Assembly (NCBI GenBank): GCA_000182565.2
Contig: KQ257459.1
Length of the DNA stretch: 64,000 nucleotides
Source of the DNA: Spizellomyces punctatus DAOM BR117
Lineage: Eukaryota
Direction: 5' to 3' (one strand)
Both the position numbers and the translations under genes were made by a program. Numbering within the stretch: the first letter of the stretch is position 1; each line of letters begins with the position of its first letter. Positions 22,055 through 51,500 of this stretch are shown here, piece after piece. Below the pieces are notes generated by a model that saw only the letters and a list, made by a program, of their open reading frames with translations, had not been told where the DNA came from and did not search any database.

Positions 22055-23698
22055 ATGAGCTCGCCCAACATGAATACTCTCAAGAGATGCCTGGCTGATC
22101 TTCGATTTACAAACTCGTTCACACACCATCTCATTGCTGACGCTCGAACAGCAGGCGAACCATTTGCTCGTGCGCGAACACCTAGCCCCTTCGCCCACAC
22201 GCCACGCCAAGTCTTGTCCGCCCACTTTTCATATGTTGAGCCTGAACCCGCTCCAGACCCTGTTTTGATATCTGTTAGCAAGCCATGCGGGGAGGTGTTG
22301 GGATTGGATCTAGAGGCTATATTGGCTGATGAGAGGGAGAAGGATAGGTTTATTGGATTCGTAAGTGGACGGTATGTGCCTGAAGGGACGAATCCGTGGT
22401 CCATGGCGTATGCTGGCCATCAGTTTGGGTCTTGGGCGGGACAGTTGGGAGATGGGCGTGCGATTTGTCTGGGTGAAGTGACAACAGAGGCTGAACAAAG
22501 GTGGGAAGTTCAGTTGAAGGGCGCTGGATTGACACCTTTTTCGAGGTTTGCGGATGGATACGCTGTTCTGCGCTCGTCGATAAGAGAGTACCTATGTTCA
22601 GAGGCCATGTTCCACCTTGGCGTTCCGACAACCCGTGCATTATCGTTGGTTGGGTCGTCACGACGTGTGCAGCGGGAAACCGAGGAGACTGGAGCGGTGG
22701 TATGCCGCCTGGCACCAACATGGGTCCGATTTGGGAATTTTGAACTCTTTTTGTCGAGAGGGGATATTCCCAATCTTCGCCTCCTTGCCGACTGGGTCAT
22801 CGCACACCACTTTCCTCATCTTGCCGCGCATCCAACAAAGTATTCCGCTTGGTTAACTGAAGTTACTCACCGAACCGCCAAGACCATCGCAAAGTGGCAA
22901 TCCGTTGGATTCTGCCATGGTGTTCTCAACACCGACAACATGTCCATACTAGGTCTCACCTTGGACTATGGTCCGTTCCAATTTATGGATGCCTATGACC
23001 CTCAGTATGTGTGCAATCACAGCGACCATACCGGGCGATATGCTTTTGATGCACAGCCTGGAGTAGGCTTGTGGAATGTGGCGAAATTGGCGTCGGCGGT
23101 TTCACCTTTGGTTGTGGACGAGGAGAACGGTGATAAATCTCGGGCAGAGGACAAGTTGAAAGAGGTTTTGCAATCTTACGCGGGCAAATTTCATGAAGAG
23201 TACATGTCTCTCATGACGAAAAAACTGGGATTAATGTCCCCCCGTCCTGAAGATGTCGAAACGCTAGTCAAGCCTCTCCTAGCCCACCTCGCCACCCTTC
23301 AAGCTGACTATACGCACTTTTTCCGATCCCTCAGTACTGGATTCACACTCGCTCAGTCAGATTCCAAACCGCCCCTATCCGAGCCGCTAGAAGAATGGTA
23401 CAACGCCTATCGAACACGTCTACTCTCTGAACTCGATTCACAAGCGCAAGATGTACTTGTAAAAGCTGACATGGACAGGATGCAAAGAATGAAAGCTGCC
23501 AACCCAAAGTACATACTTCGCAACCATTTAGCGCAGCAGGTCATTGATAAAGCAGAGAAGGGTGACTATGGAGACTTGGAAGCCTATTTCAAAGTTTTAC
23601 AAAGACCTTTCGAGGACGGAAGCGCAGAGGAGGGAACAAAGTTTGCGGGAAGTGTTCCGTCGTGGGCGAAAGGCTTAAAGTGCAGTTGTTCGTCATAG
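22055..23698 (+). CDS. SELENOO: SelO/YdiU protein adenylyltransferase (Cys homolog)
   Basis: YAGHQFG.WAGQLGDGRA, QLKGAG.TPFSR.ADG.AVLRSSIRE, HGVLNTDN, DYGPF, NPKYILRN, C-terminal CSCSS. Confidence 0.95.
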   Translation: MSSPNMNTLKRCLADLRFTNSFTHHLIADARTAGEPFARARTPSPFAHTPRQVLSAHFSYVEPEPAPDPVLISVSKPCGEVLGLDLEAILADEREKDRFIGFVSGRYVPEGTNPWSMAYAGHQFGSWAGQLGDGRAICLGEVTTEAEQRWEVQLKGAGLTPFSRFADGYAVLRSSIREYLCSEAMFHLGVPTTRALSLVGSSRRVQRETEETGAVVCRLAPTWVRFGNFELFLSRGDIPNLRLLADWVIAHHFPHLAAHPTKYSAWLTEVTHRTAKTIAKWQSVGFCHGVLNTDNMSILGLTLDYGPFQFMDAYDPQYVCNHSDHTGRYAFDAQPGVGLWNVAKLASAVSPLVVDEENGDKSRAEDKLKEVLQSYAGKFHEEYMSLMTKKLGLMSPRPEDVETLVKPLLAHLATLQADYTHFFRSLSTGFTLAQSDSKPPLSEPLEEWYNAYRTRLLSELDSQAQDVLVKADMDRMQRMKAANPKYILRNHLAQQVIDKAEKGDYGDLEAYFKVLQRPFEDGSAEEGTKFAGSVPSWAKGLKCSCSS

Positions 23699-29025: not shown

Positions 29026-29931
29026 TTGAAGTGCGTAAAGTTATCATTGAATTTTGCGAACCTCGAACTGATGAAGCATCACATGACATCTGCAAATCCA
29101 ATCGGTAAAAGTCATTGCAACTGGTTTGAAGTAGCATTTTTATTTAATAATAATGTATGTACTAATGCATTCTTATGGGAATCAATCCTGGAATGAAATC
29201 ATTCTGCCGCTGGGTTGAACCACTCAGAGTTCCGGTCATCTTCATAACCGATTTTCAGTGCATGGGTTGGGCATACGCAGTTCCTTTGGTAAATGAAAAC
29301 AGCGGTGTTTCGATTCCGCAAACGTTGCCGAACGGAGTGCGGCGATGGAAGTACGCCGTGTCGGACAATCGAAGGAACGACCGTGATACGCAACATTTAG
29401 CGTACGACTATGGCCGTGATTTTTTGCCGAAATGCCTTGTTGGAAGAAGCCCTCAAGACAAACTCAACCCTCGCACTTGCTCAATGCATTTTTTGGGTGC
29501 GTTTTTCCCTTGCCAATTTTTTTAAGCAATGTAAGCAGGGGTTTTCGTTCTGTATGACGTAGACAAGCTGCATACTTTAGTCAATAAAGTAAGTAGACTG
29601 TAAATACGTCAGTGACAAGCTTGCACAAGGTTGCGATTTCCTTCTTTTTGCCGTCGCTTGTATGCAAATATGGCGGTTTTTTTCTGTGATATGTCATTTT
29701 AATGTGCGTGAGTGGTGGAAGGACGGTACTGGAACGGCCACTTTTTAAATTTTTTTGCCTATAACTTCTGTGTATCTTCCGTGGGCTATGATGACTGCAT
29801 ATGCAAGACTTTTTAATGTCCGCAAAGAATTTCGGTGAGCAGGTTGACGATGGTTATAAAATGGCATCGACCCAAGAGATCCCTCACCCCCCAGCAAAGG
29901 CAACAATTCCTAACTGCAACAGCAACCAAAA

Positions 29932-30693
29932 ATGCATTTCACAACCATCCTCATACCTGCCTTCACTCTCCTCACCGCCGTCCAAGGCGCCAGCGTACCC
30001 GCGTGGCATCCCCCGGCTCCAACAGACGTCCGCTCACCCTGCCCGGCTCTTAATGCCCTTGCCAATCACGGAATTTTGCCCCGCTCCGGCAAGGATATCA
30101 CACCAAAGCAATACATCGACGCAATGAGCCAAATTGGCGTTGCGGTCGATCTTGGAGCCTCGTTGGCCTACGCGTCTCCTTTCCTCGTTCCAAGTCGTAA
30201 AAACGCCCAAGGCGAGACTGTCTTTGGACTGGATGACCTGAGGAAACATGGTGGAATCGAACACGATGCCAGTCTTACGCGCAATGATTTCAACACCTCT
30301 CCCAATCACGACAACTTTTCCTTCAACCAAACCTTGTATGATCAACTCATTTCCTTGAAAAATCCCACTACCGGCCGACTTGACACGGACTCCCTAGCCA
30401 AGGCTCGGTTCTTGCGCCAATCCGAGTCGAAAGCCACCAACCCCGCTCCAGTCTTTGACGTCAAGCAAGATCTCCTCGCTCACGGTGAAGCCGCATTGTT
30501 GCTTACGGTCTTTGGAAACCAGTTCGATAGCCAGGTACCTGTAAATGTGGCCGAATCGATCCTGGCAAAGGAGAAATTGCCCTTTGAAGAGGGGTGGGTT
30601 CCCGCCAAGCTGCCAGTTGGAATTCTCAAAGTTACGGCAGTTTCGCAGGTGATTAAGAGTAAGGAGGGTGCCTTGGCCAAAGGTGGTCAGTAA
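29932..30693 (+). CDS. Secreted heme-thiolate peroxidase / short unspecific peroxygenase
   Basis: Signal peptide; DVRSPCPALNALANHG (proximal Cys PCP motif); IEHDASLTRND. Confidence 0.93.
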   Translation: MHFTTILIPAFTLLTAVQGASVPAWHPPAPTDVRSPCPALNALANHGILPRSGKDITPKQYIDAMSQIGVAVDLGASLAYASPFLVPSRKNAQGETVFGLDDLRKHGGIEHDASLTRNDFNTSPNHDNFSFNQTLYDQLISLKNPTTGRLDTDSLAKARFLRQSESKATNPAPVFDVKQDLLAHGEAALLLTVFGNQFDSQVPVNVAESILAKEKLPFEEGWVPAKLPVGILKVTAVSQVIKSKEGALAKGGQ

Positions 30694-31789: not shown

Positions 31790-33106
31790 GACGGGTTGTT
31801 TCTCCGAGGGGGCGATGAGATTGCGTTCGTTTTGCAACAGTTGCGAGTCGTTCTGGGCGATGCCAAGGTATGATGCGGCCGGGAGTCAACTCGTCTTGGG
31901 CGGGAACGAGAGTCGGCACCCGTGTACAGCTTTTTTATCACAGTTCAATCCAAACAGATAAATGCGCGGCGAGGGACAAGATCCTCCCCAACGCAGAGTA
32001 TATATATCTAGCAAAATAAGAAAAAAAAAAGGAATGCCCCAATCATCCGCCAAGCAACCCACAAATCACGCAGGCCAATCTCCTTGCACCGTGATATAAA
32101 TTCTGCTTATATCTCCGGGGGCACGTTCATATTGTTAATTAGCGCCTGGCTATGGATTTGGAACGTCACATTTCGCTTTGTAGCAACACGTGGAGGAGGA
32201 GGGGGTCAAAAATAGGAACTTGTAAAGACCAAGTGAGCGACAACGTGTTCTGTGCTATTGGAAGGGTCACGTATCTCTTTTTGTTGAAAAACATGTGGGG
32301 ACAGAAGCAATAATGACTGGATCTCTTTTCTTTTTTTTTTTTTGGCAGTGTTTCAGAGTACAAAGGATTTTGTATTTTAAAAAGCATGTCTGTTGATGAT
32401 CCATTGGCAGAGTGTGTCCATGGCAGGGCACTTGGGCGGTGGGCTGGATATCATCATTTCTTTTGAAATTTCTGGACAAGGGGCCCTGAAAGAAAAAGAA
32501 AAAAAGAGGTCGGGAAGTATGCCATTGCTAGCTCAGGGTTTTGTAAGTGCAGGCCGCCCATAGCGCTGCTTCTCATATCCTTGGGAAATCAGGTATGATT
32601 CAGACTGAATCGCATGGCAAAATAATACTAGTACAAATACGGTGAAAACCTCGATACGAGTTGCAAGCACGGCCCTCTGGCCCACGTCCTGCCCGAAAAA
32701 GAGTTGACGATATTGCATATTACGGACGACAAACTTCAATCGAAATGCAGTAGCAGTATAACATACATTGGGGAGCGGTATAACACATGGATGATGCTAC
32801 ATCGGAAGTTTTCTGACGAGCAACTTTGGAAAAATTAATGCATTAGGATAAACTATTTCCAAAAATACACGTTCAGCTTACAACCAAAGGCTATTTTAAG
32901 CAAGCATAACTCATACTTTGATGATAGAGCTCAGCACTGAAATGAACCGTCATGAATAGAGGAAAGGGTGAGGAATTGGGGCACAATATGAGGGTTAAGT
33001 TTCTGGAAAAGACTCATGTGGCGACTTGCACTTGTAAACTCGTGAGATATATATTCACTCCCCCAGGTTGCCTTCCACAGTTACCGTTTTGCAAACTGTA
33101 TCAGAC

Positions 33107-33759
33107 ATGGCCAGCCGTCGAGACAGAAGCATCTCCTTTGGTGGGGAACTCTCCCGCCCAAAGCTCGACTCAATTCTTCCTGCTTCTGGGAAGCTTGCTC
33201 ATCAACCAGAAGAAGAACAGGAGGGGTTGAAACGATTCCGAGGGCTTGAAGACCTATTTGCGCACCGTCCTCAAAAGGACGAGCTTATTAATAGAAATAT
33301 CTTGAGACCGGATAATGTGTCGGGAGTCATTCAAGGCGTGCAGGAGCAGTTGAAAAAGCAGATCATTGAGGTAGGACCGTGTCAATGAGATTTCCAGATG
33401 CTGCCTAGCTTTATTTATAACCTTGGGTGTCTCCTTTAAATGTAGGATCACTTGAAAGATAAACTGGTTGCCCGACCAGTTCCTGAAAAACTCATCGAGC
33501 AAAATATTATGAAAGACTCTACGGTTGCTCCTGCATTGCAGGCACCGCAGCAGGATCTCATCAAGAGTCAGCTGCAAGACAGTCTTGGGAGTTCGCTTTC
33601 CAAGGTAACATTTTTGACACATCTTTTGTTCCATTTTTTTTTTTTTTTCAGAAAATGCTGCAGAGGGCGGTATACTGACTTCCAATGTTTTCTCCTCTTT
33701 CTTTCCAGCGACCCAGCGAGAAAGATCTTTCTAAGATCCTTCACCCAACTCAAGCCTAA
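33107..33759 (+). CDS. RPEL-repeat protein (G-actin binding), 3 exons
   Basis: HRPQKDELINRNIL, ARPVPEKLIEQNIM, KRPSEKDL; introns near 33371-33445 and 33605-33708. Confidence 0.85.
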
Positions 33760-34090
33760 AATCATGCTACCCGTTTGCTTTGCTTTTGGACTGTAGTGTT
33801 GAGGTATAGGAATTCATAGAATGACAGTATAGCATTAGCAAATTGTTTGGCGTTAATATCAATAAATTAGTTTTATGGCAGAAACTGGCGATTGAGAAAC
33901 TTCCTGCGGCTATTCTTAGCGCTAGGACGATCATTCCTGCCCCTGCCGTCGTATATATTTACAGTGTTAAAGGAAAGCTCAGAGCGCGATGTATTGCACT
34001 TCATCAAGATGATAAGATAGACACGAACAATCTTAGAACAAGCAACATTATTCAGCGCCTGGGGCGCATGTAACGATTACTATTTTATCC

Positions 34091-37000
34091 TTAATCAGTC
34101 CGCTTTCCATCATTCTTTTCGACCTTCCCTACCGCCTCTTCCATGGTTTGCTCCACATTCTCCTCCAATCCTTGCATAAATTCCTCAAACCCTTCCAACG
34201 AAGCGCCCGTCTGTGTCGCCATCTCCTTCTTGGTTGCAGCGTCCAAAACTCTCTGGCTGGCTCTAACCCAAGCAGCTGGCCCAAACCGACTCTTGTTTGC
34301 GCTCCAAAATACGTCCCAGTATGCGTCTCGCAGTAAAAACAAGAATTGGAGGAATCGCATTACGAGCCAGATGATAAAGAGTGCCAAGAGACCATTTGCA
34401 GGGGACACATTTTCGGTTCGTGCTTCCTCCGCGATAACATCTCCAAGGTTTGCCTGACATACTCCATCCTTCTCTAGCAAGCACTCTCCAAGACCCACAG
34501 CATTGGTCCGAATCAGAGCTGACAGAGCCCAATAGGTGGGATTCAAATATTGAAACCAAGCAATCACATCATAGACGCTCGTGTCCCCCTTCTTGATCCA
34601 TATCCCACTGGCAATGGCCAATACCGCCTGCGAAAAGAAGGCAATACTCCGCGCTTCAGGTCTTCCCAGTCTGGTGCAATAAACAAGTGTGAATAGCGTT
34701 GTTGTGCAGTTGTAATAGACGACAAAGAGTGTCATGGCTGTCCCAATTCGGAGGGAATCTGGATTGCACCCCAGTAAGAAGTATGCAGATATGACGGCGA
34801 GGAAACCTTCGACAGTTGCCATAGCAGTTTCGTAAATTAGACGATGGAGAAAGAAGGAAAGGGGATCGACGGTGCCATTTTGAGAGTCGTAGTTGTAGAT
34901 ATCCCGGTCTTCATAGTAGTCGAAGGAGATGTGAATGTTTTTCAAGGCAGGGAGACCCACGCAGGCTGTAAAATAAAAGTCAGAATCAAAGGACATCTGA
35001 GTAAAGAATGCACAAGAGAAAGCGTACCCAAAGCCAACCCTTTGGTCTGTAGGACAATCGACAAAGCATCATCGCCAGGCCGTCTCTGCAATAAAGCCAA
35101 TATCCATACTCCACATCCAGATATAATCGTCATATTCAATTTACGCGGCACCGGCTTTGTCAACCACCACCTGGAAGTAAGAATCAGCATCTGCTTAAAT
35201 GCGCCCGGTCGGTGCGGGTCCCGCCGTTTCTTCCAGGTTTTTCCTGTAGATATTTGAACTGCCTCCACGGAGAGAGACGGTGCTATTGTAGTTGTCGGGA
35301 TTATAGTGTGCACAGTTTTGGTTAGGCGGGCTGTTCCACTCTCGAGTCTGTCCATAGAGTCTGGGCGACGGAGGGGGATTAACGAGCCTGACCCGAGTTC
35401 GGTTGTAAAAAAAGCACTCGTGCCTTGACCTCTCTCGCCAAGCACTGCATCTGGGCCCGTAGCAATGCCCGTCCCTGCGTCAGCATCAACAGGATCATCT
35501 ATATGTGCCTCCACATCACCAGCACCGTCCAAGTTCCACTGCGCACAAGCCCATGCAGCGTCACGGAGTGCAATCGCGCCTGCAACATCTAGAATCAAAT
35601 CTGCCGGATTGGTCACTGCATCTTCCTTTTCATCTTCCTCTGCCGTACGAAGACATCCTGATGAAGTATTGCGCGTAGCGAGTGCGTTTCGCAACTTGGT
35701 AAAGTGGGCAACGGACTCGTTTGGCGATCCGGAAAAGAGAAGACGACCGTATGTGAGGACGGTGACTTGAGAGAAAAGTTGGAACATCTCGGTACGGGGT
35801 TGGTGGATAGAGCAGATTACTGTGTAGCCTTGTAAAGCAAGTTGCGAGAGGGCATTGCCGACGTCAAGGGACGATTTCGCATCTGAATTAACCAACATTA
35901 GTCAAACAAAGCCCTTCACTGACACCAATGAAAGATCGCCCACCTAATCCTGAGGTAGGCTCATCTAAAAACAAGATACTGGGCCTCCTCAACAAAGCCA
36001 CAGCTATTGACAGCCTCCTCATCTGGCCTCCGGATATACCTCCCTTATTACTTTCTGGACGCTGAATCAAGACATCAGCGCAGGGCGCAAGATTCAAAAG
36101 ATCGAGGAGGCGATTGATGCGACGGACTCTATCCTGGTGCGTTTTTGTTGTTGGTAACTAAGCAGCGGCAATATAGAGCTTCAGTCAAGGAACATCTCGA
36201 TATGATGGAGAAGTCGCTGGAATACCTCTAGCATCGCATTGAACATCATCACTTCACGAACAGTTAAACCGTAGTACGGTGCATCGTGTTGTGCAACAAA
36301 TCCTGTCATTGAACGGAAAGTGGTTGCGTTGAACTCCGCAAGAGGTTTTCCGGCCAGATATATTTTGTCCTGAGTCGTGGTTGCCATTAAACGGCGGTTC
36401 AACTGTTACAAAAGTCAAGCATTAACATGCGAATCTGGTAACAGGAAAGGCGACGTGTTCACGTCACACACCAAAGAAAGCAGCGTCGTCTTTCCCGCAC
36501 CACTAGGGCCCATGATAGCAGTCACAGTCCCAGGTTCACATTTGAAAGAAACCGAATCCAACAAACGTTTTCCTTCGGGCACATCTCCAGCGCGGTAAGT
36601 CAAATTCCTACACTCCAAGACGACAGGTTTAGGTCTCTCCTCTTGGCTCATAGTCTTATATTTTGACATGGCCTCCGCATTTCCCAATTGCATCGCCTTG
36701 CTCATCTCTGTTTCACTTTTGTATACCGCAGCGAAAATGCCGTACAATCGTTGTCGTAGTATTAAACCACCAAGAAGGAGACCAAGTTCCCAAAGCACTA
36801 TGCAACCAATTAAACCAAGGGCGACAGAGAGCTCCGCCGCACTCAGTGCCGAAGCCTGAGCTTTCGCCTCGGTTATGCCAGTCATGGAATAGATGGGAGC
36901 ATACTCGTATCCTTGGGTGTCCCAGAAATCGCAATAGGAGGAAAGGGGATGACTGGCCTCCGATAATGGAGTATAATTGCCTGAGGTTTGGGTGGAGGGG

Positions 37001-38736
37001 TTTGGAAATCGGAGGATGGGGAAGGCTGTGGTGTTACTGGTTGATTGGAGCCAGATGGGGAGATCAGACGTTGTATTCGTGCCGGTAATAAAGACCCGAA
37101 TGTAATCTCGAAGGGCAGTTGTCACTTGTTTGGAAGGGGCTTTGTGAAGAAGAAAATGGCACTGCTTCAGAACCATAAGATGCCGTAGCAACAAACCTAC
37201 AGCAAACGTACCATCGTCTGGCATTTTCATCACAAACGACAAATCCGTCGTATGACAGGCCATATCTTTACAGATGTTGCCCAGTGCATCCTCCGGTCCA
37301 CCCAACCAAGGCGCCTCAAAGACGTACGACCAAACCTCCGCTGCACTTGACCGCACTGACTGCCTCTGGGGACATAAAAACACCCAATCGGTCGTCATTC
37401 GAGTTAGAATCGGTTTCCTGTTGGCAAGGAAGTCTTCAGAATCTCCACCGTACATATGTTGACATTCGCCATCATTGGGTGCATAAAGGGCATTTCTGGA
37501 TACGTAGGCGGCATAATTTTGATGAGTTTTATGGTTGTGATAAACCACACGAACCCGGTCAGGCTTACACAATGACGTTAAAGAGAGGTGTACTGAGGTC
37601 ACCGGAAAGGCCCTGCTCGAGGAATAGGTATGTTTCGTTGGATACCCCTCCAATCTACAGATGATGGGGTGAGATTGAGACACCCATGATCTAAAACAGA
37701 TATGGACTTTGGCCATGCATCATTTACTTACGATGGCCTTAACTCCAATCATATGCACCTCTTGGCTCAATATCTCAAATGGATTCGCTATAACGTCTAC
37801 ACCATCTATAATGGGTGGCATCGTCTTGAACGCGATGTCCGACATTCTCTTCTCTTCCTCCTGCACATGCCCATCCTTTGCGTTCAAAACCTCGCGCATC
37901 GAAGCCTCCTGCAAGCACGTTCGATTGGCACAGCCAAGCCGGCCAGCAACCTTCTGTGCATCTATTTGAGCTTGTCTTGTTGATGACAAGGCCAGAGCTG
38001 GTGGACTCATTAGAATCATCTTGGAGGCGAAATGTCGAGTAGAAGGGTGCGATCGGTGAATGAGAATAGATTGCGCTCCGGCGGATTGACCCATAAGTGT
38101 CAAATCGCTTGAATTACCACCAAATGCTGCAATATTGATGGATACCCATTGGAGAGCAAGCCGTTGATCCAGAATGCCAAAGTTTCTCGGATAAGTCGAT
38201 GGAAGCGTAGGATCTACACCAGTCATATCAAAGAACCCAAAAACTCCCAGCCGGTAGTTGAACGATACAACGATAACATTTAAAGCTTTAGCAAGTTCGG
38301 AGGCATCATAAACGCCCATTCCGGCACCTCCAATCTCAAATGATCCGCCATGAAAGAACACAAGCACAGGCAAACCGCCCACCGCAAACTGGGATGGATC
38401 ATCTATCGGAGTGAACACATTCATAAACAGACAGTCCTCAGAGATACGATCAGGACACAGAACCGTTTGACAAATCTGTGGGCAACTTTCTCGTAGGTTG
38501 AAGGCATCGATCGTTGTTGCATTGTTGAGGAGAACGGCTGGTTCCCATCTCTGGGCGACAGCAAAGCGAATTCCGAGAAAGTCGAACGTGCCTTGTTGAT
38601 TTGCTCTGCCCCGGATTGCGGTACCGGATGGGATGGTAATTGTAGTCGTCGTTCCATATGTCGCTGCAAAACAATTGGCCATCAGGATCAGCCAGATTGC
38701 CATTCGAAGACATTTAGACCGTAGTTTGATGACCAT
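34091..38736 (-). CDS. Type-B carboxylesterase fused to an ABCG (White-family) half-transporter, multi-exon
   Basis: Esterase part: signal peptide, [44 protein letters not shown]. Then a TM helix, [34 protein letters not shown] and a C-terminal TMD. Confidence 0.85.
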
Positions 38737-39582
38737 CGTCCTGTCGTCCCATACACAATGATTGAAGATTGTTTCTGTACTGATGCAATTGACAGGATAC
38801 TTCAAGCAAATCTGCAGTAACTTCGGTTTACCCTCTCATGCCGTGGTCGCTTCCTGAATCCCGCTGGACCGGTTCCTCGCCCGAAACCATCCATATCGGA
38901 CACCCTCACCATTTCCAAAGTAATTTTCGTTACCGCTGAATAACAGACTCCGGTCATTCATGCCTGAAGCGTCAAAGGATCTGCTGTCACAGGCGCACCG
39001 TTTCCCCCTTATTTCCTGCTAGTAACAAAGCCTGGTCAAAGTGGATTCGAGTCATACGGTACTGTAGTCTCGCCGCATGTATAATATCAGAAATGCGATG
39101 CTTTGATACAGATGCGGCTGGATGATTTTTCAGGGTCAAAAGTGATATTATCACGTCGTGTTTCCAACTAACGTTAATTTCGATGGCACCGTGCAAATGT
39201 GGTCATTTCAAGGACGGTGCTGCCACATTGACTGTTATGACTGGATTTAAAATGATTGAAAATATGGATGACTTTCTGATTGTTCCCGATCTGCGAGTGT
39301 TTAAGTTACTAGTGATCGGTCGATAGTGGTAGGGATCAATTTGGGATGCCATCCGGTCTTCGCCAATTTGCTATATGATTACCAACAGATTACAGAGAGA
39401 TATGATTGAACGAGATACTTCCAGTGGAACTACCATCCCGTGGCCATATTTATAATACCCTGTAGTATATTATCAGAAATCAAACATCCTATGTCCTTTC
39501 GGCTATGTACAATCCACAAGCATCACCCTGTTTATCACAGACCTCTCCACCCAACGACTTCCAAGCGAGCAAACTAACACCA

Positions 39583-42500
39583 CTAATCTGGGCCACACAA
39601 CAAGCAAACTCCGCCCAAGATCCATTTCTGTGGTCTTTCCTTTGTCTTGAGGTTGAACGTCCAAATGAACGTTGGCCCTCTTTGCCTTGTCCTATACACA
39701 GGACATTCATATACTCCTTTCGTGTCCTTCTTGTCAATGGGGATTGCCTTGATGTATATAACCGGCATAGCAGGCGTAAGCTCTTTCAGCAAACTCTCCT
39801 GGATCAGTCCAGTGTTCGTGTCCCATCGAGCTCCTTCCATAAAGAGTCCATGGATATAGGCACCCTCCCGAGGTGCACCAGAGAACTCTTCTTTAGACTT
39901 TTTGGTCACGTCCACAGAGAGAATCATTCGGTCCAGCGGCCATTCGTTCTTCCGTGCGGTGGTTTGCATGATGGCGGTTAGGAAAGATTGTGGGTTGAAG
40001 AGACCAGAGAGCCATACTACGGATGGTAGCTGGAATTCTGACACCCAGCTCTCGAGTTCTTTGATACGCTGGAGAAGATCAGCGTACCATGCCGCCAAGC
40101 CTTGAAGGGACTGATATGCTAGCTTATCCCATGATACATGGACAGCATTCATGAACAGAGAGTTCATTAGGGCTTCCATATTTTCAGTGATTGTCAGATC
40201 ACCCTTGAGACCAAGTGGAGTTCACGAATGGACCGTCGAATTTCGGTGGTAAGCATGACATTCGATCGCACTCTTGAAGAGCTACCGAAATATATGGTGT
40301 GCGCTCTTCCACCTTCGCCATGAGCTCCGCTACGTTGAATGGATCTGGAAGTGAGCCAAGGATATCCTCGATGACTTGGCCTACTTTTTCTTCCTTGCTT
40401 GTCGCCGAACCACCAGATGTGTCACGAGGTTGCATTTCCAGGATCGTACGGAACAAGGTATCGGCACTTTTCGTCAACACACCAATTTCGGCGTTTGGAT
40501 GCAGACCGTACAGGTAAGGACTCTCGGATGGCAGGTTCTCATCAATGTAGCGATGGTAATCTTTATGATCCGACGTCGGTGGCATGAGGAATCCAGGTGC
40601 AAGCTCGAAACTGCCTTCAAACATATCAGGCTGAATATATACATCCAGATACGCAGAGCAAAGTCGTCGGTCCCAGTCATCTGAAATGTGCCCACCGTAC
40701 ATGATGTCTCCAAACATGTACCGAAGATCCGTCCATGGAACTTTTGCAAAAGTCTCGAGATAGTTATATAACACGTCGACTGAGATGGTCAGATCACCCG
40801 TGCTGAAGGGATAAGGTCGGTTCCATCCTTGTGTACCAAACTTTCGTCGTTCAAGGATAGCAGCGTGGAAGTAGCAAAGAGCAAAAAGAATGCCTCGGAA
40901 TTCTGCATCCTTAGAGCATCGTTCCAAAGACTCTTGTGTGAAATTGTCGAGAGCTCTGTGGATGTTAGCTTGCATTCCTGTTGGAGGCTCGTTGGTAATC
41001 TTGATGGAAGCTTGGAGAATGGCGGTCGGGATAATGTGATAGGCGGGGTCGCCGGCTGGCTCAGCAGACAGGAATACCCTGAAATCGGGATGAGATCCAG
41101 TTGACAGTGCCTCGAGCTTCTTCTCCAAAACGGGTAGCCACTTTGCTACCAAATGAATGTTTTCCAACATGACCCATCCACCCTGTTTGTAGGCCAAGTC
41201 CAACTTCTGTTCAGCAATCACTTCTTGTCCTTGACCGAGAGACACATAGTGGTAGTTTCCATTGTCTTCTGCAACTCCAAGTGTACGTCCAAGGGCTTCT
41301 ACTTCTTTGACGGGATCGACACCAGGTGAGAGGATGAAGAAGATGGGTGTGGCAGGGCCAGATTCTTCGAAAGACCGTGGAAGCGGCACCCGGGAAGTGT
41401 TAATGTACTTTGATCCCATCTTTTGAGAAATGAAATTCCGAACCGCATACGTCATTCGATCTGGTCGCAAACAACGAAGAATGCAGAGCTTTTGCAGTGG
41501 AGTTTTGTTCTTCCATTCTTGCGGCAGTTTTTCGTTTTCAGGTACCTCCAGCTCACAATACTTCTTCCATTGTTTCGATCCGCCCTCAATATCTGACGAC
41601 AAAGATTTGAATACCTCCATGTTGGACACAGCCTTGACCATTCCCCATGAGCTATCGCTCAGCCAGTCAAATGGGCTTTTCACGTTCACAGCACGAGGAC
41701 CGCGTAAAAGGAAATCCAACTCAGGAAGATCCATGTCGCCTTGACTGATGAGGATTTGGAAAGTCATCTGCGCCAGGAAAATAAGCTTATCCCTCTCGAA
41801 CAATCCTCTCGTGGTGTAAATAAACACCATATGGGTAATAGAGTCAATCAAAGAGTTGACACGTTCTTTAATGTCGTCGCTCTTATCAGCCCGGAAAATA
41901 GCATTTTGGAAAACCACCTTGTATGCGTTGAGCGAATACTGGTACATCGGATGAATTTGCCACAAATCGTTAAGTAAAAAGTAGAGTAGGGATGAACGGC
42001 CAGCCACAGGACGGTACAGCTCACGAGTTTCGTTAATCTTCTTTTCCGTCTTTTTGGCCTCTTCAACCTTCTGCTCAATATCTGTAGCAGTGCTCTTTGT
42101 AATCTCAAGGTTCTCAACCAAGGCAGTGTCCCCAAGGAAGTTACCCTGTGCCGCAGACAATCGAGATAGCAATGCATCTTCAAGCTCAGTTAATTTGATC
42201 TTGAACTCATTCTGTTGCTTGGTTAGCTCAGCTTTTGTTTTCTCCAAATCTGGTCGCTCGACGTTGACCACATCAGCTAGCAACTGGTCTTCAAGACCAG
42301 CTAATGTGACCGTGAAATTGATAAGAGTCGTCTGGGCTTGAATCTCCGGTGGGTAATGGGGATTTGGAAGACGGGTTTGAAGAATGAGCTTGAATTTAGG
42401 GTCATATTCAACTTCCTTGTCTCCCATCTTAATATACCGCCCCTTTTTGATAGTCTCACGACCCAGCAAGGGATTAAGCACTGGATCGATGCTCTCCTGA

Positions 42501-45500
42501 ATATCTTCTATGAGGACTGTGTCTCCAGATGAAACAGCCTTCTCAATAGCATCAAGGTATCCCCTCTGGCCTAAGCGAACGACTTTTAGTCCAGGACCCT
42601 CGCGAGTCTTGATCCAGGTAACACCTTGTAACTGAGGATCAATGATAAGTGGCCATCGTTTGCAACTAGTGACCATCGTCGCGTTTTCGACAGAGACTCG
42701 GTCATTCGGCAGTCCTTCGTTGTTCCACTTGGCAATTTCCGCACTCGACGTCAGAATATCCAAGGGGTCAAGTCCTTCAGAAAGTGAGATTCTGTACGGG
42801 TTGGATTCATCCTTGAGGAATTTGAACCAATAGTCTTGCAGTAGCTCCTCGCGATATCTTTTGCTAAAGCATCCCACATAGGACACAAACGCGGCAGACA
42901 TTAAAACATCACCGGCTAGCGTCTTCTCTTGCTCCTTGAACTTTGCAACAGCTTCATTCCAACGCACATTCTCAGATGCTAAACCACCAACCAATCGGTT
43001 GGCCAGAACGATCGTTTCTTGGGTCGCTCGGGCTTCCTCTTCACACTTCAATTTGTCGGCCGTGGCCTTCTCAAACTGCGCTGTCAATTCCGCCAAGTTC
43101 CGATCCAACTCGGCGATTTTGCTTTGAATTTCTGCCAGACGCGCTTGAGACTCTTTAAGGGTTTCATTTGCCGCCTCAAGCGCCTTACGCTTGGGTTCTA
43201 CATCTCGGTACACATGGTAATAGTTGACAATATTGACGACCCAAGAGCAGAGACCAGCTGCTGCAATAGACTTAGACTTCATAAAGTCTTCGTTGAAGTT
43301 GGGGTCAGAAAGGTAAGGAGCTAGTGCTTCCAGATTGGAGGAATCGATGTTTTCTTTGTCAAAGTTGATCAAATTGTCTAAGAAAGCGTCGACCTTTGCC
43401 ATCATGTTCTTTGAGGCTTTCCAACTCCGATCTTTTGCAATCTTCCCGGGAGGACTCAGCAGGACCATGACGGCTGCTGCTACGTTTACGACCTCCTGTG
43501 AAGGAGAACCAAAGGACTTCAATTCCGTCAAGTTCGCTTTGTTTAGAGTATCCAAGGCACCCGCAGCGGCAGCTAGCGCCGGTTCAGCGGCAGCTAAATC
43601 TTTCTCAGCATCTGCCTGTTTTTCTTGCACCTCCTTGGTAATAGCATCAACTTTCTTCTCTTCCTGTGCGGCAATGGCTTTTTCTTTATTCACTTTCTCT
43701 GTATCAATGCCAACCCTTTCAATCAAGCGTTCAGCTTCTTCGTTCTTGGCTTTCAATTCAACTTCTTGAGAGGCAAGTTTGGCTTTCAAGTCGTCCACTT
43801 GGGCCGCCGTACTCTGCAACTTGGTCAACCCATTCTCTAACCGCTCCATACTTTTAGTCAATGCCCGCGCCTTGTGCTCTAACATCTCCTTGTACAGAGA
43901 AATCAGCGCTAAGAAGGATTTTGGTGTCGTGTAGTTGTACCGCTTTTCATTAATCAAGTACTTTCTAGAAACAGTGTTTACGCTCTGGTGAGCGTATGCC
44001 ATAAACCTCGTCACAGAGTTTTTGAGATCATCCGGAACAAGGTCACTTGTCGCAATGAACCGAGTCGCGACAGACTGAAGAGCTTCCTCTGGCCACTCAT
44101 GGAACCAGTCAATCATCGTACAATTAACAATGGCAGGGAACTTCCGACACCGAGAGCGTAGGGTGTTGCCGACCGGCGAGAAACAAAGGACCACTTTCAA
44201 GTTCCTTCGGACCAGTCTAATGAACAAATCCCAGCACACCTCCCGGGTATCGACCAGTCCCTGAGCCTTTGCTTCATTCCTCATGGCGTTGATAATCGTT
44301 TCCACTTCATCATCTGGGAATAGTCCGGGGATGTTACCGCTTGCCAGCATATCGTTGATGAGGACCAAAAATTTCTCATCAGCGATTTGGGAATCTGTCA
44401 ACAAGAACATGATCTGTAGCTTCTTTATTCCAGTCTTGTTATACAGTCCTGCAAGATCAGTCTTCAAGTCCGTTACGGAGTACCCTTTCTTCAGGGTAAT
44501 CTGGAAGACCTCCATCTGGCTGATGAATGCAGCCAAGCGTGCAAGTGACTGTTTTCCACTACCTCCAACACCGACCAAAAGAGCATTTCCACGAGGAGAC
44601 TCTAGTATTCGGTTGATTCGGCATACATGACTCATCGCATCTTCGAAAAGCACCAAGTTTTGAGCAGCATTCACTTCATCATACTGCATTTGAGCTTCGT
44701 CCAACAGCTTCTTCAATGCACTCCATTCCTTGATTTGACCATATTTCGGGTCACCAATTCCACTGGCAAAGTGGGTAAAGATGACAGGCTCTGCATTAAT
44801 CGCATTTTGATCCATGTCATCAAACGTCTTCTTCACAACTTCTTGCTGGAATTTTTGGAGTTGAGACCTGTCCGTTTCGTCCATTTTATCACCGTATGTC
44901 CTCATTGTCTCGTGTAGGAAGAGGCGAATAAGGTCAATTGGCTCGCGGAGCGTGTCCTTGCTCGCGAAAAGCAAGCCTTGAAAAATGTTGCTCAGATCTC
45001 GGAGATTGAAAATGTAGTGGAATTTGACGGCGGTCGGAAGGAATGTGGCTGCCACCTTCTTGTGAAGTAGAAGAGCAGCCGCTACCAGTTTCTCGCTCAG
45101 CCTTTGAATATTATTGGGGAAACCTTTAAGATGGCCTGTTAAAATCTGCAAGTAAATGCTCTGCAATGAATCAACGCCAGGGAAGTTGACGGCAAACGTC
45201 GCAAAGTGCCTCTGCAGACGTCCGTTTATGGTGAAGCTACCGGCTGTCGGGTTCATGCAGGCAACATACTGACAATTGTGAATTTCCTTCAGTGTTAGCT
45301 TGCTACGATCGTACCAGTGTTTGTAGTCAAGATATTGGCGGAGCAGTGTATGTGGAGATGCAGTGCCGTACTTGTCAACCTCTGGCATGTTCAGGTCATC
45401 CAGGAAATAGATAAGCTTCTTGGTTCCAGGCGGTCCGTAGTTTCTACCAGCCTTCTTTTCAAGTGGTTTTTCGAGAATGGCTTGCAAGGACCAAGCTGTG

Positions 45501-48500
45501 GTATAAAAGTTGAAGGGTACGTTTACAATCAACCTGTCTTCGCCGTACGAGTACAACTTGTCTTGCATTAACACCGTCTTTCCGCATCCGGCGTTTCCGA
45601 CCAGAAGTACCGGTTTACCGTTATCGGCCAGGACATCTAGCATGTACCGTAGGCGGGTTGTTTCTGGGGTGTGCACCAAAACTGCACTAAGAGGCATTTC
45701 CGGGTCATACTGGTAGGTCGGGACGCGATCCGTCCACGGAACGAAGCGTTTTGTTTCGGTTTCCACATAGTAGTCAAAGACCGTCCCTTGCACTGGGAAC
45801 TTTACAGTTTTGAATTCCGAATTCCACCATTTGCTGAACTCCACACGATAATCCACCATCTGATCTTGGAAAACACAACCCCCAAACGCCCAAACTGCGG
45901 CAAAGACAAAGTATATCTCAAACCATTCCTTATCGCACCCTTTCGGAGTGTTCTGCGGTGTCAACAGCCCTTCCAGGAGATTGCAGAGTGTCACGACCAT
46001 GGAAAACTCCTCGACACTGGCCATCTTGAACCGTCCCGATCGACATGCATCCAAACAGATATTGACGTATCTATCGAAAAGCACGCTTAGATTAGACTTC
46101 TCGGCTGCATCTTCCCGCTTGTCCAACCAGGATTGCACAAAAGGATTCCATCCCAGATCAGTGGTATTAAGGTATAAGATACCGGCACGCGAAACGGTAG
46201 CGGGAGTAGCGTACTTCAAATCGCCAATCTCGAAGATTAACCTCATGTTTGGCTTAAGAGGAATACGTTCGTTAGATGCGAGGGTCAACATCTTATTGTC
46301 GTCCATGACCGTGTTCAGAGACTCAATCCAGTTCGGGTCAATGTCACCATCAAGGATCATCCATCGAGGGTCTGTACCAGGGGTCGAGGCCAGTTCACGC
46401 ATGATGCTGGAAAATAGACCATCCTTCCATTCACGAGTTGCAGGATTGATACACCCAAAAAGATCATCAGTACTGACGGCTTTGGGGTTGAGGTCAGAGT
46501 ACACGCATTTCTTCCCCATGTTGACGTAGGTCTTCGCAAGCATCTTCCAGATTTGCGATTTGCCCGTACCACCATTACCGATAATAAAGACACAGTGACG
46601 AACTGCTAGCAGCTCCTCCAGCTGCACAACTTTGAGCACAAATACTTCTTCTGCTTGCAGCCCGCTTTCAAGTGTCGCTTTTCGAATCTGGTCCTCGAGC
46701 TTCTCATCTCTTTTCCGTGCGACTTCTACCTTAGGGAACAAATCGCCAATGAGACCGTGGAATACCTGCAAATCATCGGAGACAATCTTTGGCAAGTTGA
46801 AATCACGTAGTGCACGCATAAGAACATGCTCCTCAGGAACATGAGGGTCGGCACGCTTCAAAGCACCGGCGACGACAAGGACGGACTTGATGGCACGCAA
46901 ACCCCAATCGTAGTGGTCTTGTTTTGACAGCAACTCTTTGTTAAGTTTGTAAAGAGTATTGAACTTCCGCGCCAAGGAGCTGGCTTCCACGAAACCTTCA
47001 GCCATAAGCATGATTTCCATAATGAGCTCCAGGTTGGGCACTACCATCGAGCAAGGACGGAATAGAGCTTTGATATTCTCGGGGAGCTCGGTACGACCAG
47101 CGTATCCAGGGTTCATAGTAATGAAGGCACCAACAGTGGGTGTCAATCCAATCTCCTCTCCCTGGAAGATGAACCTCTTTTTCTTTGCTTTTAAGGCGTC
47201 TTGAATGGATTTCACCTGAGTGGCAATGACAGACAGCACCTCAACAGAGATACGGTTGAACTCATCGAAGCAGCCCCATGCACCAGATTGCGCAAGACCC
47301 TTGAAGATGTTACCGACAGACTTGTAGTCCATCTGCTCGGAACAATTGAAGACGTAAACCATGATACCTAGAGCCTTTCCTAAATCTTTTGTGGTTTCGG
47401 TTTTTCCCGTACAGCAGGTCCAGCTGGCGCACCACCCATGATCAGGTGCAGAGATTGGGTGAGAGTAATGTAACAACGATCTGTGAGCGATGTGACAACG
47501 AGACGAGGCGTATTGCCAAGGTACTCGTAGTTGTAGCGGAACATGGCATCACAAATGTTGATCAAACAATCGTTCTGATCTTCATCCCATCGGAGACGTA
47601 GTTGTGACTGCCATGAGAACACTTGCGCACTGTCCGCCTTCTCGGAAATGAGCTTTGCAACGATATCACGAGCATGGACATCGAGCGTACACACTGTCAT
47701 AATCATCTGACGACTCAATTTGGTCAACTCCCCTTGAATGAGAGTGATCAAGGCAGTCAGTTGATTGACTTGCTTTTTGTAGTAGTCTTTGAGGGAATTT
47801 TCATAGCCTTCTTCCAATCGACTAAACGCCACATTGACTTCCGTCGTCCACCAGATCTGTGTGCCAGCCAAGGTGATCTGAGCAGGATAATCAAATATCC
47901 ACTGCTCACGAGGTTTCTCTTCGTATGCCGAGACAGCCTCTCCAAGAAGTTGTCGAAGCGTTCGTCTCATCATATCCACCAACCGGTTCAGCCACACTTC
48001 AACTGGACCAGTACATTCACAGGGCTCGACAAACTGCACATATTCGTCTTCCCTAGAGTACATTCCAATTGCCGTTTTGGTGATCTCCCCGTTAGGCCCT
48101 TTTTCAAATTCCAGCTGAGCAACACTATCAAATAGCTTTCCAAGGTGAACCGCCACCGCTTGTGGCATATTGCCCTTCGCCAAGATGTCCAACAAGTCCG
48201 ATGCCGACACAAAGTAGAAACGGGGAAAGGCGAGTCGCTTGGTTTCGAGATATTCCGCCAAAGATTTTTCGCACAGAGCCAACTGACCCTGCAGATTTTC
48301 AAGCTTCTCGAAGAGACCTTCTTTTGTACATGCTTCGACGCAATTCGGGGTCTTAGATGCTTCCTTCATGAGGTCCTTGTACGCGGAATCGATAGAGTCA
48401 AACCGCCGTGAGTCCTCGGGGAGCTGAGCACGANNNNNNNNNNNNNNNNNNNNNNNNNNNNNNNNNNNNNNNNNNNNNNNNNNNNNNNNNNNNNNNNNNN

Positions 48501-51500
48501 NNNNNNNNNNNNNNNNNNNNNNNNNNNNNNNNNNNNNNNNNNNNNNNNNNNNNNNNNNNNNNNNNNNNNNNNNNNNNNNNNNNNNNNNNNNNNNNNNNNN
48601 NNNNNNNNNNNNNNNNNNNNNNNNNNNNNNNNNNNNNNNNNNNNNNNNNNNNNNNNNNNNNNNNNNNNNNNNNNNNNNNNNNNNNNNNNNNNNNNNNNNN
48701 NTAGTCGCCCCGGTCCCACCATCACTTTAACATCGTCTTCGAATTTGTGCAATTGAAGGCTAAGCAAATCCTGGAATTTCATGTCCGCGGTCATAACAAA
48801 CGTAACACCCGTTGTCTTCATCAGCTGTTTCCAGTGACGGTCCCTGATAGCGCTGCTACGGAGCTCTCCGACCGCTCTCAACGAGGTTATCATGTCTTTG
48901 ACCATCTGATCAAGGCCGGAATAAACATCCCAGGCCTTGATCTCTTTATCCATTCTTCGAAGCTCTTTGGTAAGGTCACGACAGCGCGTTTCCATTGCAT
49001 CAGTGTCGATGGCGGTCCAAAGCGTGGTCCGCCACTCTTCAAACATGAGAGTCACGAGGGAAACAACGTCCCAAACAGACTTGAGCATCCCAATATCCCG
49101 ACGGCAGTCGCCCAGTTGACGGTAAGTGGGTACATTAAGCTCAAACAATTCGCAAGAGTTCTTTAGAGCTTTAGCTTCGTTCTCCATTGCCAACACGTCC
49201 ATGTGGACAATATCAATGAGTTCATACGCTCGTTCTTGTCCAACATCAAACTTGAATGGCGCCTTTTTGCGGAATTCCTCTCTGAAATTATGGTTGCGGA
49301 CTTCGAACTTGTTGCATTTTTGCTGCAATATGTCCACCTCCTTTGCCTGCAAGGGGGCGACGTGGTCCTTGATGGAGACGGAGAGCTTTTTGACTTCAGA
49401 CCATTCTTCGGGAAGGTCGTTCAACAGCTTGTGAGTCTCCTCCGGCATTTCTACGCCAAACTGCCGTAAGAAGTTGATGGTCTTACGAAGCGGCTCAAAC
49501 ATTCCATCAATGCTTAAAGTACGATGTTTAATCGCGTGCAAAAGTCCCATAGCAGACACAAGTGCGTCGTAGTCTCCTTCTTTAATTTCCCGCTGGAGCC
49601 CCTTTTTGTTGATCTTAACAAACTCGTTGAGCTCGTTCAAGCTCGAGATGGCATCGTCTTGAAGATGTTTGGTCAAAGTGTAACTCCACTTTTTAACCAC
49701 CACGTTCAGGGCTTGCTTAAGCGGTCGAGCATCAATGCGGAACCATCCTTGGAAAATCACTTCTGGTTCAATCCCCATGACCTGTTTATGCAGAGACTCA
49801 AACTTGCGAATTTCGTTTTCAAACTTTTCGAGCTTGCTGGGATGCTCTGGTTCGGCAGCTTTTTCCTCATTTTGGGATTCATCATCCCCTGTTTTTTCTG
49901 ATGTCTGGAGGAACTGTTTCATGTATTCTTGGCGATTCTCGGTCCATAGCCAGGTAAATTGATCATATCCATCCTTGTAGACAACACTCTGTTCCATGAT
50001 CTCTCTCACATGTTCCAGAATCAAAGTGCGCAAACGGATCAAGGTTTGATCACGACGCATTTCACCCAGGTATGTCTCGTTTTCCATGTTCATCTGAGCA
50101 AGCTGGCGTGCACGGAAATCATCTTGATCAGAATCTGAGGCGTAGTCTTCATCGCTGTGAACGTCGCTGTCAGAAACGCCATGCCCCGCTCCTTCAGATG
50201 CCTCGTTTGTACCGTTTCCAAGAGCTGCTCCATTAGCAGCGTCTGGAGTGGCTGGAACAGTAGGTAGGTGTCCTTCACCAGGTCCGGCAACAGGCTCTAC
50301 ATCCTTGGCAGGGGCAACGCGGCCCATCAGAGAGGCACAATCGTAAATGTCTTCTAGAAGGTCGTTGATAATATAGGCCAGACTGTCCTCCGCATCTGAA
50401 AATTTCACAAACTTTGTGAGCTCCAAAACAAATGGACTACTTCCAACTTGGTTCTCACCTTCGTCCATGTTCGGTGTAAACACCAAACTCTCACCCTGAA
50501 GCTCCAATTTCGCCTCCAAAAGTGGTCCTAATTCACCGAGTCTCTCCGATTCCATATTCTGAGTGATGTATTCCAGACTGGTTTTGAGCGTCTTCCAGAA
50601 GCCTTCCTTGACTTGCCCATCAATAAACTCCTGGTACCGAATCCATTCCTCAGACTCTTCATTGGCATGAACAACTTCTCTCGTTTGGGCAAGTAGTCCG
50701 TGGATGGATTGACCATCCCGCTTAATGGAATCGTAAACAGTCGATAACCGGGAGTCCTTCTCCTCCAAATTCAATAGCTTCTTTCCATCTTTGCGCTCAA
50801 CCAGCGGATTGGCGCTCCAACCTTTCATAATCTTTTGAATTTGGTTCAGATTGTTCTTCATCAACTGGAGAACAGAGGAAAGATCTCCAACAGAGGTGCC
50901 AATTTGTCCAATGTAAGATTCAATATCGCCAGACGTCCAATTGAGCGTCGTAAGGGCGTGCTCAATTTGCCCATCAATTTGCCGAATCCGCTCTTCAATA
51001 AGCGGTCTCTCCACCTCCAAGACCCCGGTGCGTATACCATTGTAAGATTTGGTAATGTGGTCAAGTTGGAAGATGTACTTTCGGAAAACATCCGATTTGG
51101 AGTAGACTGCTACGGCAGCTGGTGGGGGCTGCACGGTAAGTGCCTCAAAGTATCGAACTTCTCGGAGAAGGGCAACGACTTTGGGATCAAAATTAACCTT
51201 CAGCAGCCCGTCTTCGCGGACGAGCAGTGGTTTTTGAAGGTTGGTTTCTGACTCGTCGGTGATGGTATCGCTCCAGCGGGTGAAGATGCTACGCTCATAG
51301 TTTTCGAGGGTCTCATACAAGCTCTCGTACTTGGTTTTGACGAGGTTGGCATCTTCAGTGTTCATAGCACTGTGATTAAACTACAAAGAGACGACCGTTA
51401 GATATACGCTTAATCTTGAACAATCAAACCAGTACGTACGCTTTTCAGTTTCTCCATTGCTTTGGTGATACGGTCTTTCAACTCATGGACCCAGGCAACG

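Follow-up and report, generated by a model that had tools for sequence, protein, structure and literature searches.

Does this locus encode a single protein in which a carboxylesterase is joined to an ATP-binding cassette (ABC) transporter and, if it does, what might such a protein do? The question arose from a reading, made from the letters alone, of a 64,000-nucleotide stretch of contig KQ257459.1 of Spizellomyces punctatus DAOM BR117 (assembly GCA_000182565.2; the whole stretch is referred to as the window). This sequence-only reading proposed one gene at 34091-38736 encoding an esterase ectodomain, a helix and an ABCG half-transporter. Pfam matches, a junction lying within one exon and recurrence of the architecture in many chytrids uphold that proposal. 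The gene at this place, SPPG_09314, is almost certainly one gene, and its product a 1387-residue membrane protein with an exoplasmic esterase, a transmembrane helix, a cytosolic nucleotide-binding domain (NBD) and a six-helix ABCG domain.

The gene and its junction exon

The esterase-ABCG gene occupies 34091-38736 on the minus strand and comprises eight exons, which were joined by script and are all GT..AG-bounded, with introns of 61-77 bases each and a stop codon at 34091-34093. Its spliced translation is identical, letter for letter, to a public protein of S. punctatus DAOM BR117 deposited as an "uncharacterized protein" (SPPG_09314, 1387 residues; P0001 below), and the reading frame is unbroken across 1387 codons. 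Along the chain, a signal peptide is followed by a type-B carboxylesterase, one transmembrane helix, an ABC ATPase and an ABCG-type membrane domain, and a Pfam scan of the spliced protein found COesterase, ABC_tran and ABC2_membrane, the three families expected from the sequence-only reading, all above their cut-offs.

Exon 1 (37732-38736; this and all following positions in the gene are on the minus strand) carries the start codon, the signal peptide (residues 1-26, 38659-38736) and the N-terminal 335 residues, including the HGGSF motif and Ser218 of GQSAG. Exon 2 (37569-37654) holds IGGVSNET with the acid residue Glu342, and exon 3 (37212-37495) the C-terminal half of the esterase with Cys439, Cys444 and His445, the last within ACHTTDL. 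Exon 4 (36472-37139) is the junction exon; it encodes the end of the esterase with Cys528, a stalk of about 30 residues after the esterase end, the first transmembrane helix (TM0; residues 563-588, 36751-36828), a cytosolic linker and the start of the NBD with Walker A. The remainder of the transporter is encoded by exons 5 (36226-36402), 6 (35944-36157), 7 (35028-35882, carrying the H-loop His838) and 8 (34091-34965).

Because the esterase end, the helix and Walker A all lie inside exon 4, the fusion is independent of any splice prediction. This exon coincides exactly with the stop-free stretch that had been claimed to run from the esterase C-terminus to Walker A; it spans YIRVFITG...YCDFWD, the hydrophobic helix and GPSGAGKTT without a stop. 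By simple arithmetic, the chance of 222 stop-free codons is about (61/64)^222, or about 2e-5, and the same frame matches two Pfam families. The raw stop-to-stop frames of the minus strand present the same picture: the frame at 37720-38835 (371 residues) matches COesterase with E 3.9e-64 and 217.9 bits, and that at 36415-37719 (434 residues) contains the C-terminal part of COesterase and the first 33 ABC_tran positions in one frame. Intron 3 (37140-37211, 72 bases, GT..AG) is in frame and stop-free, so the raw open reading frame reads through it, and the unspliced frame is 93% identical to P0001 at 100% coverage. Retention of this intron would add 24 residues just after the probable catalytic His and leave the frame unbroken.

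Two sets of reads bear on the locus. An independent run (X1) yielded one unspliced, DNA-like contig of 755 bases, 37103-37857, which shows no difference from the window. In an RNA run (X5; 60-base reads, 3'-biased, about 6/100 of the run read), the neighbouring plus-strand gene reaches a depth of 227 with poly(A) tails after 33884, and since these tails are on the plus strand, the first mates of X5 read the RNA sense strand. Minus-sense depth of 5-7 at 33977-34330 represents the low-level 3' end of the esterase-ABCG gene. The X5 pattern fits a 3'-tag library and indicates that the 3' end of the esterase-ABCG gene is transcribed. Plus-strand first mates, antisense to this gene, were also recorded in the regions 34508-35038 and 36632-37162, with depths of 18-28 at 34685-35038 and 1.5-4.3 at 36632-37162; they could derive from an antisense transcript or from internal priming at the A-rich positions 34965-34980.

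Esterase, ATPase and membrane domains

The COesterase match (PF00135) in P0001 extends over residues 32-497 and profile positions 4-492 of 515 (4.4e-73; 247.4 bits vs a cut-off of 27), and within residues 1-560 Pfam finds no families besides COesterase and related models of the alpha/beta-hydrolase type. The HGGSF oxyanion motif named in the sequence-only reading is present at 38338-38352, and the codons of Ser218, Glu342, His445 and Cys528 are at 38083-38085, 37634-37636, 37252-37254 and 36931-36933, respectively. In the alignment with acetylcholinesterase, GQSAGA is placed on GESAGA and the Glu of GVSNET on the Glu of GVNKDEGSY. His445 of ACHTTDL fits the type-B pattern H-x-x-D/E-L-x-F/Y and, judged from this motif and from its conservation, is the probable catalytic His.

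Conservation was counted in a 27-row family alignment (A3), using only the rows that cover each site; four rows (P0247, P0248, P0250 and P0254) are esterase-only fragments, of which P0254 presumably belongs to a fused gene. The nucleophile Ser and the oxyanion Gly-Gly are each invariant (21 of 21 sequences), an acid residue is always present (22 of 22: 21 Glu and one Asp), and so is the His of CHTTDL (25 of 25). Cys439 and Cys444, a pair specific to the family, are both kept in 25 of 25 sequences, and Cys528 in 24 of 25. By these residues, the esterase looks catalytically competent. The nearest solved esterases by sequence are acetyl- and butyrylcholinesterase, bile-salt-activated lipase, liver carboxylesterase and p-nitrobenzyl esterase, among which no class stands out; exon 3 alone gave no match in the PDB. 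An affinity to fungal lipases of the Candida rugosa type was considered and rejected, with no such entry among the 60 best PDB matches listed.

The N-terminus of P0001 is hydrophobic and, by inspection, signal-peptide-like, as the sequence-only reading had it, and ortholog N-termini are comparably hydrophobic. Seven N-x-S/T sequons occur within the first 513 residues, and the strongest hydrophobic 19-mer (residues 568-586, Kyte-Doolittle mean 2.35) is followed by RQR. Taken together, these features suggest an exoplasmic esterase, a cytosolic NBD and an arrangement of 1 + 6 helices. The exoplasmic side would correspond to the cell surface or to the lumen of an organelle.

The ABC_tran domain comprises residues 652-809 (35951-36561, exons 4-6; 9.7e-28, 98 bits) and includes Walker A (GPSGAGKT, 36487-36510), the Q-loop Gln719, the ABC signature ISGGQ (36023-36037) and Walker B (35960-35977); the H-loop His838 (IHQPR, 35803-35805, exon 7) lies just past the match. 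A linker (residues 871-1035, 35212-35706), poorly conserved at a mean identity of 0.20-0.21 where the NBD and TMD have 0.46-0.50, connects the NBD to the ABCG-type membrane domain (residues 1036-1310, 34325-35211), in which ABC2_membrane matches residues 1104-1248 (2.1e-9, 38 bits) and Cys1258 and Cys1266 are located in an extracellular loop (34457-34483). Signature, Walker B, H-loop and C-terminal transmembrane domain (TMD) could thus all be located in the NBD-TMD order that had been described, with ABC_tran before ABC2_membrane. All 22 family sequences that cover the H-loop have its His; the Lys of Walker A is present in 23 of 25 and the Asp of Walker B in 24 of 26, with the exceptions found in fragmentary models. 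Pfam identifies one NBD and one TMD per chain. By analogy with the ABCG family, such a half-transporter should dimerise, so that the outer mouth of the pump would lie beneath two esterase domains.

The fold was modelled with alignment A3 on an ortholog, P0251 (metagenome, 1191 residues, about 60 N-terminal residues missing), instead of SPPG_09314. The AlphaFold2 model has a predicted local distance difference test score (pLDDT) of 80.2 and a predicted template modelling score (pTM) of 0.70, with the NBD and TMD mostly above 90 in pLDDT; it includes a 40-residue helix at 477-516 and is of low confidence at residues 868-893, which correspond to the NBD-TMD linker. The sequence-only reading had called for an AlphaFold prediction; this ortholog model superposes on ABCG2, ABCG1 and Arabidopsis ABCG25. 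Foldseek matches of its C-terminal ~630 residues in the PDB were ABCG25, ABCG2, ABCG16, ABCG5/8 and ABCG1 (E 5e-27 to 1e-20), with target template modelling scores (TM-scores) of 0.72-0.85 over ~630 columns and 19-24% identity. By sequence, the best PDB matches of the transporter part were Cdr1, Pdr5, ABCG2 and ABCG25 (E ~1e-40).

A family in Chytridiomycetes

A search with the junction piece among proteins of 598-2000 residues (7999 candidates scored) gave 22 matches at E <= 1e-3. The top eleven are chytrid or metagenome proteins, and all of them except the truncated P0007 contain COesterase and ABC domains. When the same piece was scanned exhaustively with HMMER against 1.84 billion cluster representatives, 403 proteins reached E <= 1e-3, most of them through Walker A, with 24 at <= 1e-10 and 7 at <= 1e-30. 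Pfam annotation of ten further junction hits revealed three full fusions (P0245, P0246 and P0251), two junction fragments (P0256 and P0249), four esterase-only fragments and one unrelated two-NBD ABCG protein. Rhizophlyctis, Homolaphlyctis ('Hompol1'), Polyrhizophydium, Gorgonomyces, Quaeritorhiza and Blyttiomyces were added, among the matches listed, by a search with the NBD-TMD part. Metagenome proteins from ENA and Logan that contain the junction are P0009, P0251, P0256 and P0249, and the ESM Atlas yielded only generic ABCG and generic COesterase clusters.

Esterase and ABC domains are fused in one model, among the matches listed, in 12 named chytrid species: S. punctatus, Powellomyces hirtus, Geranomyces michiganensis, G. 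variabilis, Thoreauomyces humboldtii, Batrachochytrium salamandrivorans, Boothiomyces macroporosus, Rhizophlyctis rosea, Homolaphlyctis, Polyrhizophydium stewartii, Gorgonomyces haynaldii and Quaeritorhiza haematococci. Three further species are represented by truncated or split models in which the esterase tail and helix are still present. Blyttiomyces P0023, on a 3.8-kb contig, begins inside the esterase, and Fimicolochytrium P0007 begins just past it and keeps the esterase tail and helix. Entophlyctis helioformis has a 'partial' esterase with the helix (P0254) and an NBD-TMD protein starting right before the NBD (P0132); because both are on 78434-base contigs, they are most likely one gene split by annotation.

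The orders that were looked up for members are Spizellomycetales, Rhizophlyctidales, Rhizophydiales and Chytridiales, together with two incertae sedis genera, all of them Chytridiomycetes; the remaining member genera we take to belong to orders of this class as commonly placed. The fusion family is confined to Chytridiomycetes among everything that the searches returned. A maximum likelihood tree of the NBD-TMD part (25 rows, 668 columns; P0005, P0010 and P0028 left out as near-duplicates or defective models) clusters the members by order, with support of 98-99 in the Shimodaira-Hasegawa-like approximate likelihood ratio test (SH-aLRT), at a distance from two arthropod 'white' proteins. Two short rows meant as outgroups (P0141 and P0212) were placed inside the family in this tree. 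The grouping by order fits old vertical descent. Averaged over all pairs of 11 long members, identity is 0.38 in the esterase, 0.50 in the NBD and 0.48 in the TMD, and only 0.16-0.20 in the stalk, helix, linkers and tail, which indicates that constraint is on all three domains and not on the connectors. The fusion is real and old within Chytridiomycetes.

Several members deserve separate mention. Quaeritorhiza haematococci, which we take from its name to be a parasite of the lipid-rich alga Haematococcus, has four family proteins (P0032, P0033, P0245 and P0246), and two of its members have consecutive locus tags (HK102_009773/HK102_009774) and are both on 18922-base contigs, suggesting tandem duplication. 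In P. stewartii, P0027 (1981 residues) has ankyrin repeats and a protein kinase domain before the signal peptide; a shorter model, P0028, has the signal peptide at its very beginning, so P0027 was most likely merged with an upstream gene. No fusion of Batrachochytrium dendrobatidis was among the matches listed in the length-limited searches, in which its ABCG protein of another type (P0075) was listed; this species may have lost the fusion gene, or its gene model may be poor.

The family is already visible as unnamed database models, yet it is undescribed in the literature searched. Searches on the locus tag, on carboxylesterase combined with ABC, ABCG or chytrid, and on both Pfam names found no description of the fusion (supplements were outside their scope), and the four papers naming both Pfam families are, by their titles and abstracts, insect detoxification-gene inventories. 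The word 'esterase' has 0 occurrences in the accessible part of Kovalchuk & Driessen 2010 (PMC2848647). The sequence-only reading knew of no characterised ABCG protein with an esterase ectodomain. The architecture recurs in chytrid database models, and the literature searched contains neither a description of it nor a characterised protein of that kind.

Other genes in the window were identified around SPPG_09314. A small plus-strand gene with an RPEL repeat (33038-33884; Pfam E 1.7e-6) converges on its 3' end; this is the gene of depth 227 in X5, and its poly(A) site is at ~33884. Directly upstream, a very large dynein heavy chain gene (40199-52399, minus strand) encodes motor domains from AAA_6 to Dynein_C, and its N-terminal part matches the axonemal DYH2-5-8 coiled coil, which fits a flagellated fungus. 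Pfam also identified a SelO protein adenylyltransferase (22001-23698, plus strand), a family-2 (heme-thiolate type) peroxidase (29914-30693, plus strand), an NAD-dependent sugar epimerase/dehydratase (14675-15715, minus strand) and an ABC-B-type membrane domain (60496-61758, minus strand); no functional link of these four to the esterase-ABCG gene is apparent.

Possible functions and known systems

The most likely mechanism, to which we give a probability of roughly 40-50%, is export followed by processing at the exit. The ABCG part would use ATP to carry a lipophilic ester or acylated lipid out of the cytosolic leaflet and across to the exoplasmic side, where the tethered esterase would hydrolyse or trans-acylate this cargo as it emerges, so that export and cargo processing would be coupled within one polypeptide. 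The ABCG proteins characterised so far for the most part bring lipids, sterols and hydrophobic compounds to the exoplasmic side, which is the side of the esterase. That an esterase and an ABCG transporter are covalently linked in nature points to a shared substrate.

Several points weigh against export and processing at the exit. The tie between hydrolysis and transport, like the direction of transport and the substrate that esterase and transporter would share, is one that we infer, and some ABCG proteins mediate uptake. The residue preceding the nucleophile Ser is Gln in 18, His in two and Trp in one of 21 sequences, not the usual Glu. In an ungapped HMMER alignment, the His of acetylcholinesterase is set five residues upstream of His445, on Cys439; of the triad that the sequence-only reading had called apparently intact, Ser, Glu and His do stand at the positions claimed, and given this offset the catalytic role of the His is only probable. 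The esterase profile scores about equally for acetylcholinesterase (236 bits), butyrylcholinesterase (~218) and bile-salt-activated lipase (213) and so points to no substrate. Run X5 has almost no depth over the gene body and junction and no splice joints; it neither spans nor refutes a full transcript.

That SPPG_09314 represents a eukaryotic ABC exporter with its own trans-side cargo-processing enzyme, in which the dimer would extrude an ester lipid or pro-metabolite and the esterase pair would de-esterify or trans-acylate it at the exit, is a tentative and somewhat unlikely proposition. If true, the family might help to lay down or reshape a lipid or polyester layer outside the cell, in the chytrid wall, or restrict the activation of a secreted compound to the cell exterior. 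We know of no export-coupled trans-side catalysis for any eukaryotic ABC transporter.

Scavenging is the alternative that survives best, and we regard it as unlikely. Here, the surface esterase would cleave external esters (steryl, wax, cutin-type or acylglycerol, from sources such as pollen, algae or skin), and the ABCG part would take up the products or insert them into the membrane, as the yeast ABCG proteins Aus1 and Pdr11 mediate sterol uptake. The topology and the conserved triad residues are equally compatible with this direction, the family is present in both saprotrophs and parasites, four copies occur in Q. haematococci, and bile-salt-activated lipase, a cholesterol esterase, is among the best PDB matches of the esterase profile. 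However, most characterised ABCG proteins export and the data give no sign of transport direction; the profile, moreover, is slightly better against cholinesterases than against lipases, so a preference for sterol esters is not indicated.

Rather less probable still is a role of the ectodomain in ligand binding, adhesion or regulation, or as an esterase simply anchored by a transporter of an unrelated substrate. Cholinesterase-like adhesion molecules are likewise built from an esterase-type ectodomain with one transmembrane helix after it; however, the non-catalytic proteins of this type typically lack the Ser, whereas Ser, acid, His and Gly-Gly are kept here in every sequence covering them. 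Such retention across deeply diverged orders argues for retained catalysis and is compatible with an unrelated substrate. In favour of a module outside cargo processing, related fungal ABCG proteins carry a non-enzymatic EGF (epidermal growth factor)-type ectodomain at the same position, according to the accessible parts of two papers (PMC2848647, PMC9426558).

An artefact, be it adjacent esterase and ABCG genes merged by misassembly or model error or a decaying pseudogene, is rejected as highly improbable: although the RNA reads do not span the junction and the Entophlyctis (P0254 and P0132), Fimicolochytrium (P0007) and Blyttiomyces (P0023) orthologs are split or truncated, in such models the ABC portion retains the esterase tail and helix, or the esterase portion retains the helix, the junction is in one exon of 222 unbroken codons, the whole frame is intact, fused models come from separately assembled genomes of the 12 named species as well as from metagenomes, and the independent X1 contig is identical to the window.

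An exoplasmic catalytic domain on a eukaryotic ABC transporter is, to our knowledge and in the literature searched, undescribed. The cargo of orphan ABCG proteins, including yeast Adp1, has been a long-standing difficulty, and the substrate sharing to which the covalent link points would provide a handle on the cargo of an orphan ABCG family. Its presence in the salamander pathogen B. salamandrivorans and in an algal parasite with four copies may bear on the handling of host or environmental lipids. Genetic transformation has been reported for S. punctatus, a chytrid that is not a pathogen, which makes the esterase-ABCG hypothesis testable.

Several known systems resemble the chytrid protein in part. 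In the plant cuticle, ABCG11 and ABCG32 deliver acyl-ester precursors that the extracellular GDSL-type cutin synthase CUS1 processes; there, unlike in the chytrid fusion, transporter and hydrolase are separate proteins, the hydrolase belongs to another family, and a polyester product is not indicated for the chytrid protein. Bacterial peptidase-containing ABC bacteriocin exporters have an N-terminal, cytosolic C39 peptidase that processes the cargo before transport. They offer a functional analogy, being likewise hydrolases fused N-terminally to an ABC transporter, in their case one that processes the exported cargo, but the SPPG_09314 hydrolase would be on the far side of the membrane, and the ABC fold and the kingdom differ.

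Neuroligin, gliotactin and neurotactin have a COesterase-fold ectodomain, a short stalk and one transmembrane helix, and SPPG_09314 is similarly tethered by a short stalk to one helix; whereas these adhesion molecules have no catalytic Ser and stop after a short cytoplasmic tail, the chytrid protein retains a probable triad and runs on into an ABC transporter. With type-B carboxylesterases and cholinesterases it shares the whole COesterase domain (236-211 bits), HGG, G-x-S-A-G, a Glu as acid and a C-terminal Cys in C-x-F-W. It differs from them in having GQSAG in place of GESAG, an additional conserved Cys pair immediately ahead of the His, a shorter loop following the His, and a covalent attachment to a transporter. 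The transporter part resembles human ABCG2, ABCG1 and ABCG5/G8 and Arabidopsis ABCG25 and ABCG16 in the order of NBD and TMD, the ATPase motifs, ABC2_membrane and the Cys pair of the extracellular loop, but the solved ABCG half-transporters have no signal peptide, ectodomain or extra transmembrane helix.

In layout, SPPG_09314 is like yeast Adp1. The Adp1-related half-size ABC-G group is Group VII of Kovalchuk & Driessen (2010) and clade V of Winski et al. (2022), and the accessible part of the former credits S. punctatus with six Group VII genes and describes Adp1 as having an EGF-repeat soluble domain in place of the first NBD (PMC2848647). This fits the statement of the sequence-only reading that Adp1-type proteins carry an N-terminal luminal EGF domain at the same position. 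Neither NBD-TMD search returned an ADP1-named or EGF-Pfam protein among its best 120 matches, in lists crowded by two-NBD proteins; the second search, with a 692-residue query, returned mostly two-NBD proteins of 1000-1200 residues. As drawn from domain order, the likeness appears to be one of layout. Both proteins are fungal, and SPPG_09314 shares with Adp1 (YCR011C) an exoplasmic soluble N-terminal domain, a membrane anchor, a single NBD and a TMD; where Adp1 has EGF repeats, however, the ectodomain of SPPG_09314 is a carboxylesterase with a probable triad.

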